From a virus, in UHGV virus genome UHGV-0103877: 24,722 nt of DNA, one strand, 5' to 3'. Position 1 is the stretch's first letter. The number at the start of each line of letters is the position of its first letter. A program made the position numbers. Positions 12,001 through 18,000 of the stretch are shown piece after piece.

Positions 12001-15000
12001 AGCTGCGAATCGTCGTGCCCGCTTACTACCCTGGCGGTTTTGATGTTGACGACTACGCAGCTGGTAACATGTTTGAAACTGGTGCGTTACAGAACAAAGA
12101 AGACATGATGTCAGCGGACGGTAAATACCATGCTGGTTTTATCTTTAACCCGACAGAGTTCACCATCAACCTGATGCCCACATCCAATGCTGGCTCGCTG
12201 ATTGATGACTGGTATGCAGCGGAGAGAACCGCAATTTCAGCGTTTCAGTGTAATGCGGTGCTTACAGTTCCGGCTCTCGGCGCGAAGTGGAATTTTGTGA
12301 ACGGGGTTCTTTATACATGGACTCCAACTCCTCCGGGTCGGCGCGTACTGCAACCACGCCCGGCAGTATTTCACTTTGAGTCTGTAACACGGAGCACTAT
12401 CTGATGGCACGTAAAGAAATCCCCTTTATCGTGGAAGATGATAATCGCGACAATGGGAAGGAGTTCATTATCACAGAGATGTCAGCATGGGATGCCGACG
12501 AACTGGCACAGGATTTATTCCGCTCCATGGGGGAATCGGGATTCTCTGGTATTCCTGCTGATGTTATTGCCATGGGGTGCGCTGGCCTTGCCACCCTTGG
12601 TCTGAATGTTATTTCTGCTGCATCGCCGGAAGTCGCCAGAAAACTTCGTGATCGCCTGATGTCAACTGTGCAAATTGTGATTACACACGAAGGCAGCAGA
12701 CAGGTGCGAACCGTGAAGCCTGTCGACTTTGAAGAGGTATCAACCATTCGTCAGGTAATGGATAAGGTATTTAAAGTCAATTTTGATTTTTTAACGATCG
12801 CCGGAGAGTGAAGTACCCGTTCATGGAGGAGGAGACTCTTCCGGCAAAACTCGTTAGCCCCGTAAACGTCACACCATCAATGAACGCCATTATCTGTTCA
12901 GGAAAAGCCACTTATACCGATTTGCAGGAAAGGTTATCTGTTCGTGATATGTATAACCTTCTGGAAATTATCTCGGTGGAATCATTTAACAAGCGGGTCT
13001 GGAATAAACATCAGGAGCAGCGATGATTATCAATGAGTTGGCCTACAAGGTCACAATTAAGGCCGATGAATTCCTGAATGGAAAACGGAAAGTAAAGCAG
13101 GAAGCACAAGACCTTAAAAACGAAATAGAGAGATCTTCATCTGCGATAGAAAGGTCAACAACCTCCTCGATGTCCAAAACGGCTAAGGAGACCGACAAAG
13201 CTGCTGTTGCAATGAAAGGGTTGACTGCTTCATTTAATGGTTTTTTGGGGCTTTCGACACGCTTTGTGGCTGTTGGCGGTGTGTTGACTGCCGTAGCCAT
13301 TGGCATTCATCGTGCATTTGAAAGTACTTCGGAGTCAATTGTAAGAGCCAGTAATATGGGGAGAATGCTTGGAACAAGCGCCAGTAACGTTCTTGGTACT
13401 CAGTATGGATTCTCCCGAATTGGTCAGAACGGCGGCGCGTTCCTTGGGGCACAGATGAGCGCCAGGATGGCGCTTGCCAATATAGAAGACCCAACAATTT
13501 TCGGTGGACTTACACCGGAGGCTCAGAATTTACTAACAACTGGAGCGAGAATAGGCATTGATATTAGTAAGCTTGGAGGTAAATCAGAAGATGCTCTGGC
13601 TGAATTTCAGAAGTATGGGAAGAACCATAACGAGAAACAGTTAATGCAAGTTCTTTCTGCTTTTGGTTATGACCCTAATCTTGCCGGGGATATTAAAAGC
13701 GGAAAAGCTGTGCAGATGGTATCTGAGGAAGAAAAACGATGGCAGATGACCAAGGAGCAGGAAGAAGCACAGCGTAATATTCTTGCTACGACTAAAGCCC
13801 TTGACTCGCAATTTGCTCAGGTTAAACAAGAATTAATGGCTACATTTGGCCCTGAAGTGCTTAAAGCAGAACAGGAGTTTTTAGAGTGGCTGAAAAACAA
13901 CAAGGGTGACATTGTTGGGTTCTTCAGGAACCTGAGTACAGGTATTGATGGTTTTGTTAAAGCCGTTGGTGGCGCTGGAAACGCATTGGGCATTCTTGCT
14001 GCCATGGCTCTTCTTAGCGGAAAGGGGTTGGGAAGCAAGCTGGGCTTAATCGGTGCTGTTGGTATTTTTGGGCAGATGGTACAAGACCAGTATAAAGATG
14101 TTCCTGATGAGATGCGGCCATTCGCATTTCAGCAGCATTGGCTTGAAAGGCTCATTGGGCTGGATTATGACGATCCAAATAAAGAGATTCCTCCTAACAA
14201 AAATGGTGTCAACAGGCCTGACAGAAACAATAACCCATTAAATCTTAAAGCTACTGGAAACAGAAGAAGAGATAAAGACGGATTTGCTCAATACTTCGAC
14301 CCAGAAGAGGGTTGGGAGGCCGCCAGGAATCAACTGACTCTATACTACAAAAGAGATAAGCTTGATACGTTGCAAGGAATAATAAGCAAGTGGGCACCAT
14401 CCTCAGAAAACAACACAAAGGCGTATATTGACCAGGTTTCTAAGTCTATGGGCGTTGGTGCCAATGATAAGCTAAACCTCTCAGATCCAGAGGTTATGGC
14501 AAAACTTAGCGCCTATATGGCTAGGCATGAAGGTTATCCAGATTGGAAGCGGGGTCTTGATTATGGTAACCCAACGAAAAATAGCAATGCCGCTTACTAC
14601 CAAACTCAGCAAAGATTGGCTAATGGATCTGCAAATCAATCCTATGCCCAAAGCGTTGTTAACAATTACAACAGCCAGCACATAGGAGAGGTAAAGGTAA
14701 TTGCCAAAACGGATCAATCCTCAAAACTAACCGAAGGATTTAAGGAGTTGAATCGCAGATCATCAGTAAATCAGGCATTTTCAAGTGCAGTGCCTTAGCA
14801 GATTTGCTATTGACTAATTTCCCGCATGAATGCAATTGTTTTGGCCATTTTCTCAGAGTGATCAATTGTCTCAACGAGAAATTTTCGCGCGGGAGATTGC
14901 TCATTCTCGCCTCGGAATGTGGCGTTAATGTTTTGCATTGCTGCATTTTTCCACATGCTTACTTCTTCTATGGATTGCGATAATGATGCTGAAGATGCAG

Positions 15001-18000
15001 CGTCAAAGCATATACCATACGATGAATCTCGTATATCTGACGGTGACTTGCCAATAGCACTAAGTTGATTTCCATACTTTTTTACCATGTCGTTAGCCAT
15101 ATCCTGACAAACTTCATCAATGCTTTTACCCATGCCTGCAACATAAGGAGAAGCATCTTTTATTAAAGACATCATTTTTTCATTATCTTTGTCGGATGCA
15201 GCATAAGCTGCGAGTGATAGAAGAACGGAAGAAAATATTGCTATTGTGAAAAATCTGGATTTCATTCTTTCCCCTTGTAACGTTTCCTATGTTTGTATCC
15301 GTTAACTGAAGCAAAAGCACGCAGCGGTTAGTTTTGCGCAGGATACCAGATGATACTGTGTAGTTGGAGTAGTGCGGTTGCAATGCAAGCATTTTGTTTT
15401 TGTTTTATGCTTGCTTGTGTGTGTACAGTGCATATAATGCAAGCATACATCACAGTAAAGGTGCTTGCATTATGACTGAAAAGAAAAGTGGTGAAGGGAA
15501 AGCTAAGGGCGGGATCGCTCGCGCAAAGTCGCTGACTAAAGAGCAGCGTTCTGAAATAGCAAAGAAAGCAGCGGCTGCAAGATGGAAAAGTAAGATTCTC
15601 AGAGCAACTCATCGTGGTAACTTTTTAGATGATTTTGGCATTGATGCTGAATGTTATGTACTGGATGACGAGTCGAAAACTGTCGTTGTTACGAAAACTG
15701 GATTATCTCAGCTGCTAGGGATTGGTGAACATGCCAGGGATTTAGATCAACTGCTTGGCGCTCAGTATATGAGCAAATACCGAGATCTAGAATTGCAGCG
15801 AAAAATGGAAAATCCCTATAAATTTCAACTTACTTCGAAGTCTAAAACCGTTCATCAAGCGTTAGGTTATGACATTACAGCAATTGTTGATATTGGTAGG
15901 GCACTAATAGAAGCCAAAGATAATGACGATCTACCACAATCACGGTTAAAGGCCGCGGCTGCAGCGCAGAGACTTATTAATGCCTCCGCTAAGGCGGGAA
16001 TTAAGGGGGTTGCGTATGCGCTTGCTGGTTATCGTCCAGAAGTTCAGGCTGTCATTGACGAGTTCAAAGCGTTTGTTCGTGAAGAGGCTCGTCAATATGA
16101 AAAGGAATTTCCAGATGAGCTATACGAGGAGTGGTATCGACTGTACGGCCTGAATAGGCCAGAGAAAGGACGGCCTATTCGTTTTGGGCAGCTAACCAAC
16201 ATGCAGATATACACCCCGCTAGCAAAGAGTAAAGGTAAAATCCTTGAACAGATTCGAGCTAGCCGAGACGAGAACGGAAAACAATCTGATAAGTTGCACC
16301 TGTTCCTTTCTGAAATTGGTGTCAAGGCTTTGCGTCAGCATATCGGTAAGCTTCTTGGTGTCGCAGCGATGAGTGAGACAAGAGAAGAATACGAAAAAGG
16401 AATAGAAAAGGTTTTCGGAAGAATGAAACCAGAAATCTAATTATGAAACCCACCGTCAGGTGGGTTTTTTGTTTAGCAGTTCTCTCAACTTTTCGTTTTG
16501 CTCTCTGAACTTTTCCTGTATTTCTTTTTGCATGGCGATAACCTGGGCTTGAAGTTGAACTAGCGCATCAACATTTAGCGGAACTGAGACGCTGTTGATT
16601 TTGTCTGCTATTTCCCCAAGAGTATTTTCTGCATTCAAGGCATCTTCCAGTATCTGCACAATCTCTGAGTTCATAGAGCGCCCGTTTCGTTTGGCTCTCT
16701 CCGCAATCGCGTCCCTCATCCCGTCAGGGAAACGCACAACAAACTTTTCGTAATCTTTAACCTGCTTTTCAGCCATAACATCACCTCAAAAAAAACAATG
16801 ATGGCATATTGCTATTTATATTCAATGATGGCATATTGCTTTCAAGGCATAATGCCATTACGCAAAAAGGAGTGATCAATGGAAAAGAATGAAGTGAAGA
16901 CAACTCTTCGGTATCCGTACCGTTTTAAGGAGGAGGTGAAACGCATCGCTAAGGAAGAGGGGATGTCAGAAAACTCAGTGTTGGTTCAGGGACTTGCTTG
17001 GTGGTTGAAGTACCGGGAGAAAATGCGGAATGCTCTCTAAAAATAACGAAGCCCCGACAGCGGGAACTGGCGAGGCTTCTACATCAACAAATCTGATCGG
17101 GAAATATTGACATGAAAAGTATAGCAAAGGCACAAAACGATTTCACCATCTTCAAATTCGGCGACAGTGAAATCCGCGTCATCAACAAGTGCGGTGAGCC
17201 GTGGTTTGTAGCAAAAGATGTTTGTGATGCTTTAACTCTGACTAACTCACGCAAGGCACTTACTGCACTTGATGACGATGAAAAGGGAGTAACTTTAAGT
17301 TACACCCTTGGTGGTGAGCAGAATTTAAGCATTGTGAGCGAATCAGGTATGTATACATTGGTTCTGCGCTGCCGTGATGCCGTCAATAAAGGTTCAGTCC
17401 CGCACAAATTCCGCAAATGGGTGACAGCTGAAGTTTTGCCATCCATTCGTAAAACGGGGTCTTACGGAAATACACCGAAAGCTAAAAAGGCGTTGCCGGG
17501 TAAAATTACCACTGAACAGCAGGAAGCCATTAAACAACTCGTCATGAGTCGTGGTCAGTCTCTGCCAAAAGAAAAACAGGCGAAGGCGATGATCACCATG
17601 TGGTCGTCACTGAAATCTCATTTTGGGTGTTCATACAAAGAAATCAGTGAGGAGCAGTTTGCCGAAGCACTGTCACTTGCAGCTCGAGTTCCACTTGAAG
17701 GCGAGTTCGTCGGCAAACAAGAGAAGAAAACCAACGAGCTTTCTGCAAAAGAAGCAAACAGCCTTGTATGGTTATGGGATTATGCCAACCGTTCACAGGC
17801 ATTATTCCGCGAACTGTATCCGGCATTAAAACAAATTCAATCGAACTATTCCGGCAGATGCTACGACTACGGTCATGAATTCTCGTATGTTATCGGAATG
17901 GCGAGAGACGTTTTAATCAATCACGCACGAGATGTTGATATTAATGAGCCAGACGGACCAACGAATCTTTCCGCATGGATGAGACTTAAGAATAAAGAAT

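Follow-up and report, generated by a model that had tools for sequence, protein, structure and literature searches.

The virus genome UHGV-0103877, a stretch of 24,722 nucleotides that we call the window, is an Escherichia coli prophage with 99.9% identity to the prophage adjoining intS/purK in strain WS4437A-1. In this study, we analyzed a small gene that lies antisense to its late operon, end to end with the gene of the tape-measure protein (TMP) (Table 1). We found that the gene is genuine and conserved, that its product bears the marks of a secreted two-cysteine protein, and that it sits in a slot whose occupant is exchanged for unrelated proteins of the same kind. Moreover, the family found in the slot correlates with the type of lytic domain on the adjoining TMP. 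Our results suggest, tentatively, that a periplasmic protein of the prophage might meet the TMP of incoming related phages and prevent penetration of the wall; the simplest way would be to bind the basic lysin domain. We hold this to be a reasonable possibility rather than the probable outcome. Both the small-protein family and the entire slot are uncharacterised so far.

The gene encodes a 152-residue precursor with two cysteines, whose N-terminus reads MKSRFFTIAIFSSVLLSLAAYA followed, past the predicted cleavage point, by ASDKD…. The operon on the other strand specifies a contractile tail of the E217/Pam3 type, with sheath (E217_gp31_N), tube (E217_Gp32), chaperones, the 591-residue TMP and then the baseplate genes. 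The small gene is convergent with the TMP gene, the stop codons being 8 nt apart, and a GGGG-rich ribosome-binding site lies 5-9 nt upstream of its ATG. A word-indexed search of 5.8 billion proteins returned homologs in 29 clusters, from Escherichia, Enterobacter, Citrobacter, Salmonella, Cronobacter and Yersinia only, and a profile search, exhaustive over 1.84 billion cluster representatives, yielded only 9; overall, the family comprises about 30-40 sequence clusters, all from enteric bacteria. The ratio of nonsynonymous to synonymous substitution rates (dN/dS) is 0.10-0.16 where dS is unsaturated, which indicates strong purifying selection. The frame is thus confirmed as a genuine conserved gene. 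The features that a sequence-only reading had listed, namely a 152-residue open reading frame (ORF) with a signal peptide ending in AYA, two cysteines and an antisense orientation, all stand in the ORF and in the homolog alignment. The same reading placed the gene in AT-rich DNA; its G+C content of 38.8% (32% at third codon positions) is indeed below that of the surroundings, but the drop is modest against 44.3% in the TMP gene and 45.7% in the window.

Some annotation pipelines call a shorter version of the gene, and this would be expected if the frame were a chance antisense ORF without function. This view is effectively refuted by the low dN/dS, by at least 29 homolog clusters with invariant residues, by a confident fold prediction, and by the ribosome-binding site and a conserved 5' element. 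The shorter version, database cluster P0003 (209 contigs), has 121 residues, starts at M32 and lacks the signal peptide; it is probably a start-site miscall by gene callers. We favour the 152-residue start, which is also used in the RefSeq annotation, because the N-terminal region is conserved and because of the position of the ribosome-binding site.

Judging by its sequence, the small protein is very probably exported by Sec. The N-terminus shows the n/h/c layout of a signal peptide, with K2 and R4, a 16-residue hydrophobic core and A-Y-A at positions -3 to -1, and this layout is kept in 29 of 29 database homologs while the sequence of the segment differs. A lipobox was looked for in the cleavage region LAAYA-AS, which has no cysteine, and none was found; the lipoprotein reading was rejected on this ground. 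A membrane anchor was rejected as well, given the A-x-A cleavage site and the soluble mature part: the sole hydrophobic segment is the N-terminal signal, and the rest is modelled as a soluble helical bundle. The AlphaFold (AF2) model is all-alpha, with a predicted local distance difference test (pLDDT) score of 86.8 and a predicted template modelling score of 0.79; confidence is high at residues 25-151 and low at residues 1-20. The conserved signal-peptide layout and the low-confidence N-terminus in the model both agree with the periplasmic export proposed earlier. The modelled helices span residues 25-38, 49-69, 75-94, 99-116 and 125-151, so that C53 and C86, which are invariant in close family A (the family of the window's protein), lie on consecutive long helices, the second and the third. 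The mature protein is acidic, with an isoelectric point (pI) of about 5.0 and a net charge of about -4.

The protein had no match in Pfam or PHROGs (at E values up to 1), NCBIfam or PADLOC. A family-A profile compared with PDB sequences reached a best E value of 0.33, with unrelated proteins, and a fold search of the model against PDB and BFVD gave no match. In addition, tblastn against 50,697 phage records found no match, and a one-genome-per-species contig scan found no relative. The sequence-only reading had noted no resemblance to lysozyme inhibitors of the Ivy or MliC/PliC type or to T4 Spackle, and the Pfam, PHROGs, PDB-sequence and fold searches bear this out; the structure prediction and fold search that it recommended yielded a confident all-alpha model with no PDB or BFVD counterpart. 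Homology to a virion structural component was likewise not found in PHROGs, Pfam, PDB, BFVD or by tblastn.

The position of the gene was then compared in about 100 related prophage loci, 77 of which were fetched through the TMP itself. In the loci fetched through family A, the gene is always convergent with the TMP stop codon, abutting or overlapping it, and the far flank varies (Arc, Bro/P22AR or ANT antirepressors, pRha or P63C genes). A barely recognisable relative of 273 residues is also convergent with a TMP homolog of 40% identity. An antisense ORF starts -16 to +21 nt from the TMP stop in about 60% of the TMP-fetched loci, and nearly all of these ORFs encode a signal peptide followed by a mature part with exactly two cysteines; most products are acidic. 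The slot contains one of at least six sequence-unrelated secreted two-cysteine families, or is empty. By BLAST clustering, the occupants fall into families A (with the related F and long forms), B, C and D and singletons. Profile-profile comparison of families A and B found no homology, and Pfam and PHROGs scans of the other cassette families gave no assignment. The model of family B, like that of family A, is an all-alpha bundle in which consecutive helices carry the cysteines, and in the long forms an A-like domain at the N-terminus is fused to a D-like one at the C-terminus.

Identity borders define the exchanged unit. DNA identity between the window and locus L048 (97.8%) begins exactly at the base upstream of the small-protein ATG, and identity with the family-B locus L023 ends about 10 nt before the TMP stop codon. 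Because these borders fall at the ends of the ORF, the exchange unit is essentially the ORF alone. The small protein of L002 is 78% identical to that of the window, with a TMP of 30-47% identity, and in L021 the values are 51% for the small protein versus 64-88% for the TMP. From these comparisons, the cassette appears to move between TMP lineages yet to land at the same place. In some related loci the gene is absent or replaced. The earlier designation as a moron-type accessory gene is supported by the lower G+C content, the patchy distribution among related prophages, the exchange as a unit and the gene's own conserved 5' element.

These moron features would equally suit cargo that serves host fitness or virulence (envelope stress, colicin or lysozyme resistance, host interaction) and that has settled in a recombination hot spot with conserved flanks at the TMP end. 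Many morons benefit the host (PMC3594210), the TMP 3' end and the 5' element as conserved flanks could alone explain repeated replacement, the slot is empty in many loci, and one relative lies at a different site. However, a generic hot spot would gather mixed cargo, whereas nearly all occupants here are small exported two-cysteine proteins; moreover, the occupant family correlates with the TMP lysin type, and the family occurs only in the context of these prophages. Host cargo is therefore, in our view, an unlikely explanation. The relative at another site, P0033, is a distant family member (L104:871-1347) that follows wedge and tail-fibre genes away from any TMP, and its location shows that members of the family can also occur outside the TMP slot.

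Other arrangements were seen at the slot. Some apparently empty loci (L088, L094, L061 and L082) carry exported proteins co-oriented with the TMP just after its stop codon, among them a 121-residue protein with a signal peptide, a 214-residue lipoprotein (LTSGC lipobox) and a 101-residue protein; one of these loci has an insertion sequence (IS) element followed by an antisense signal-peptide protein. In L022:7001-9590, a TMP homolog and a long-form cassette occur without other tail genes, beside a Toprim/DUF927 primase island near ligA and gmk. The locus may represent what is left of a prophage, or a satellite whose cargo is just the TMP and the cassette.

The TMP itself forms the conserved left border of the slot. 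It matches PHROGs 873, 2013 ('lytic tail protein') and 2276 ('tail length tape measure protein') and has hydrophobic segments at about residues 73-100 and 314-345. Residues about 395-520 match the endolysin catalytic domain of Hafnia phage Enc34 (PDB 7q47, E value 2e-10), and the domain also matches the virion protein Gp29 (9vvp, E value 9e-13). Catalytic or conserved residues of the Enc34 fold are Glu131, Trp79 and Tyr95 (PMC8943055). The RHE, KWAP and KAY motifs of the TMP align with these three residues, respectively, and the catalytic residues are thus retained. Enc34-type domains occur in many isolated phages, where they are used as endolysin or as 'tail injection transglycosylase'. For the TMP as a whole, the collection holds no close homolog among isolated phages, the best being Edwardsiella phages GF-2 and Edno5 at about 27% identity. 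The lytic domain is swapped between close relatives: L006:8468-10231 has an SLT domain and L007:8468-10279 an Enc34-type domain between identical flanks. In L040 and in L101:4474-6798, TMPs of 774 residues carry an SLT domain and then an Enc34-like domain in tandem, which looks like an intermediate stage of domain replacement; the Enc34-like domain of the L101 protein has lost the conserved Trp.

To relate slot family and lysin type, we tabulated 81 distinct TMP/cassette combinations. Every TMP of the set carries a lytic domain, of either Enc34-type or SLT type. Beside Enc34-type TMPs, family A occurred 18 times, B 8 times, long forms twice and E once, two slots had no occupant, and neither C nor D was seen. 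Beside SLT-type TMPs, the counts were C 7, D 4, long forms 6, A, F, G and H one each, B none, and 29 slots without an occupant. In the subset of loci that were retrieved by their TMP only, every cassette of family A or B adjoins an Enc34-type domain and every one of family C or D an SLT domain. When the TMP N-termini were clustered at 90%, families A/B fell in 12 Enc34 clusters and 1 SLT cluster and families C/D in 0 and 5, respectively (Fisher p = 0.0007, from small counts of units that are not phylogenetically independent). A single TMP N-terminal lineage contains both lysin types, interleaved, and the pattern persists in tail-segment clusters 6 and 10, both of which are common to both lysin types. 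The long A+D fusion forms occur with both types. Since the slot family correlates with the lysin type, the function of the cassette would concern the lysin domain, and this is the main argument for the proposed mechanism.

Based on these data, we infer the following course of events. Expressed in the lysogen, the cassette protein would be exported by Sec, its signal peptide would be cut after AYA, and the mature protein would fold in the periplasm into an acidic five-helix bundle, probably with a C53-C86 disulfide. When a related phage contracts its tail on the lysogen, the TMP would enter the periplasm, where its Enc34-type domain would open the cell wall. Binding of the cassette protein to the lysin domain or the surrounding tail tip would then block wall penetration, and the lysogen would be protected from superinfection and from 'lysis from without' when many sibling virions adsorb. 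Small protein and proposed target would share a compartment, because all members have Sec signals and the TMP bears a lysozyme-fold domain. The charges are also opposite, the mature protein having a pI of 5.0 and the lysin domain one of 9.1.

Several observations weigh against this proposal. L006, whose TMP is of SLT type, has the same small protein (P0021) as L007, whose TMP is of Enc34 type, and is a recent exception to the family-lysin pattern. Within the Enc34 type, the small protein does not covary with the lysin: next to lysin domains 85-93% identical one finds a family-A protein that is divergent, a member of family B, a long form or an empty slot, and the lysin segment correlates with the small protein no more strongly (Spearman 0.37) than other TMP segments do. 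Distant A-like members stand beside SLT-type or dual-domain TMPs (P0037; long forms), and P0033 is beside none. In addition to the modest size of the sample, linkage can create an association because the lysin domain lies about 260 nt from the slot, and it could explain part of the one found here. The small protein has no homology or fold similarity to a known exclusion protein or lysozyme inhibitor, and a literature search for prophage periplasmic inhibitors of tail lysins found none in the library searched. Regarding expression, no canonical -35 box stands 16-18 nt from the -10-like hexamer of the 5' element in any of the 21 loci that we aligned (alignment A4, with at least six cassette families), and a consensus scan of the slot in the window called no sigma-70 promoter and no terminator. 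Tightly co-evolving cognate pairs were rejected, as residue-level covariation with TMP segments gave no lysin-specific signal, and only the association at the level of lysin type was kept. The earlier suggestion of phage-lysozyme inhibition in the manner of Spackle hence stands in part: the Enc34-type domain on the adjoining TMP and the family-lysin correlation support it, whereas L006 and the missing covariation within a type do not.

Much of this evidence would suit a periplasmic protein that blocks entry without acting on the lysin domain and instead binds another part of the TMP or tail tip, such as the conserved C-terminal tail, or else a host factor of the periplasm or inner membrane that DNA passage needs. 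Such a protein would be P22 SieA, HK97 gp15 or TP-J34 Ltp in effect, but soluble. The positional coupling to the TMP and the export fit it as well as they fit inhibition of the lysin. L006 and L007 differ by a swap of the lysin domain but agree in the small protein, the TMP N-terminus and the last ~35 TMP residues, the small protein does not covary with the lysin domain inside the Enc34 type, and SieA types less than 30% identical have one specificity in common (PMC10883804). On the other hand, a lysin-independent blocker does not predict the family-lysin association, which is also present inside shared tail clusters, and the mature protein has no membrane anchor, unlike SieA, gp15 and Ltp. 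We give this explanation a low probability.

The proposed inhibition of a tail lysin has a functional parallel in T4 Spackle (gp61.3). Mature Spackle, a helical bundle of 75 residues, contains one disulfide and binds to the gp5 lysozyme at a basic patch (PMC7677548). Both proteins are small, acidic and all-alpha, with two cysteines and Sec export (predicted here), both belong to phages with a tail-borne lysozyme acting in the periplasm, and the proposed outcome, superinfection exclusion with resistance to lysis from without, is the same. The proteins differ in that they have no sequence or detectable fold similarity and in mature length (75 versus 130 residues). Furthermore, Spackle is encoded by an early gene of a lytic phage and targets a T4-lysozyme-type domain in the spike, whereas the gene studied here is a temperate prophage cassette whose proposed target is an Enc34-type domain inside the TMP. 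The analogy is functional only, because sequence and fold exclude family membership.

Precedents exist for entry-blocking genes beside those of their targets, and they count in favour of the proposed mechanism. In P22, mutations that escape sieA lie in the ejection proteins gp16 and gp20; the gene is present in 22 of 66 P22-like phages, in three sequence types less than 30% identical, and adjoins ejection-protein genes and mnt (PMC10883804). The gp15 moron of HK97 adjoins the TMP gene (PMC3594210). Both SieA and gp15 are prophage morons that block DNA entry and are escaped via changes in ejection or tape-measure proteins. The cassette resembles them as an accessory gene beside the gene of an ejected protein, with a patchy distribution, several sequence-unrelated types at one place and an immI-like neighbourhood (Arc/Mnt plus antirepressor). 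It differs in that they are integral inner-membrane proteins, while the small protein has a predicted cleavable signal and no mature membrane segment; there is no sequence similarity. Ivy, MliC/PliC, PliG, and also PliI, are proteins of the periplasm or envelope and neutralise a peptidoglycan hydrolase, as proposed here, but they are beta-rich and insert a loop into the active site, whereas the small protein is all-alpha and has no Pfam or PDB match. T5 Llp is an exported receptor-blocking lipoprotein whose gene is coupled to the tail gene of pb5, and Cor of lambdoid phages is likewise an exported exclusion factor genetically coupled to a tail gene. Llp, Cor and Ltp have a lipobox with a +1 cysteine that the small protein lacks, and, unlike Llp and Cor, the small protein shows an association with a lysin domain and no evident receptor link.

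The 5' element is a further conserved part of the slot. In relatives, it precedes cassettes of nearly every family and consists of an upstream terminator hairpin (AAAAAGCCCACCTGAGTGGGCTTT), a TTGCGTGT…TTGCAT block, the hexamer TAGAAT and the ribosome-binding site. The hexamer is nearly invariant across the A4 loci; the window has TACAAA instead and lacks the hairpin, and its variant of the element is identical to that before the family-D cassette in L048. Sigma-54, sigma-E and extended -10 readings were rejected on inspection of the alignment, as the spacings misfit, and an Rfam scan of the intergenic region gave sub-threshold noise only. A -10-like hexamer without a properly spaced -35 is also found in activator-dependent phage promoters, and Spackle is made during infection of T4. 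Hence, the cassette might act in the phage's own lytic cycle, delaying wall damage or timing lysis, with a phage activator driving the element. We judge this quite improbable: the gene is antisense to the late operon, the terminator hairpin of the relatives sets the cassette apart as its own unit, and many relatives have the gene behind an Arc/Mnt-like one, within an immI-like region that is divergent from an antirepressor, a layout typical of genes expressed in the lysogen.

Extending lysin inhibition from family A to all occupants, the slot might be a dedicated, ORF-precise locus for periplasmic 'anti-lysin' proteins. Families A and B would then act against Enc34-type lysozymes and C and D against SLT transglycosylases, the A+D fusions would have dual specificity, and lysin swaps such as that of L006 and the tandem SLT+Enc34 TMPs would be counter-moves of the phages. 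This extension is rather doubtful. If the slot is such a locus, it would reveal an undescribed arms race at the step of cell-wall penetration, with the first protein inhibitors of both lysin classes. If family A inhibits the tail lysin, a Spackle-type mechanism would have evolved independently a second time, and temperate enterobacterial phages would have their first example; several new families of proteins that inhibit lysozyme-fold and transglycosylase enzymes would be defined as well. Swappable inhibitor cassettes facing swappable lysin domains would also provide a compact natural system for studies of phage-phage competition where the wall is penetrated, and, in practical terms, such prophage genes could narrow the host range of therapeutic phages that use these tail lysins. 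The function is likely to be periplasmic exclusion or lysin inhibition, both of a kind already known. If the gene is only a host-fitness moron, it would be one more uncharacterised secreted prophage protein.

Table 1. Positions in the window of the cassette gene, its parts, its 5' element and the adjoining TMP gene (HMM, hidden Markov model).
Feature	Position	Strand	Evidence
Tape-measure / lytic tail protein gene, 591 residues; conserved left slot border and putative partner	13023..14798	+	gene order, PHROG matches
Enc34-type lysozyme-fold domain of TMP, residues about 384-533, pI 9.1	14172..14621	+	HMM envelope, PDB matches
Cassette gene, family A (predicted secreted two-cysteine all-alpha protein)	14807..15265	-	ORF, 29 homolog clusters, dN/dS, AF2 model
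Mature protein (predicted), 130 residues	14810..15199	-	AF2 model and physicochemical values
Signal-peptide coding part, residues 1-22, predicted cleavage between AYA and AS	15200..15265	-	K2, R4, hydrophobic core, A-x-A, pLDDT <50 at residues 1-20
Conserved 5' slot element: ribosome-binding site, -10-like hexamer TACAAA, TTGCGTG…TTGC block	15266..15324	-	alignment A4

Beyond the cassette, the window from about 15328 to 16440 holds a P63C-domain gene that forms, with its upstream region, a separate mobile module, which shares 96.5% identity with podophage vB_EcoP-611R6 and 97.8% with the unrelated prophage L048. At 15383-15470, upstream of the P63C gene, four copies of ATGCAAGCAT (0-1 mismatch) in alternating orientation form two inverted-repeat pairs around a TATAAT. 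Their clustering is significant, while the whole-window count alone is not, and the arrangement looks like an operator. The region 16456-18838, between the TMP and the baseplate genes, is an immI-like block containing an Arc-family gene (-), a small Arc-like gene (+), a Bro-N/P22AR-C antirepressor (+) and a second anti-repressor, an arrangement that resembles mnt, arc and ant of P22. Finally, a single T/C difference from WS4437A-1 at position 18296, within 18026..18838 (+), creates a TAA stop (CAA in that strain) that splits the second anti-repressor-like gene (PHROG 1726) into ORFs of 90 and 168 residues.

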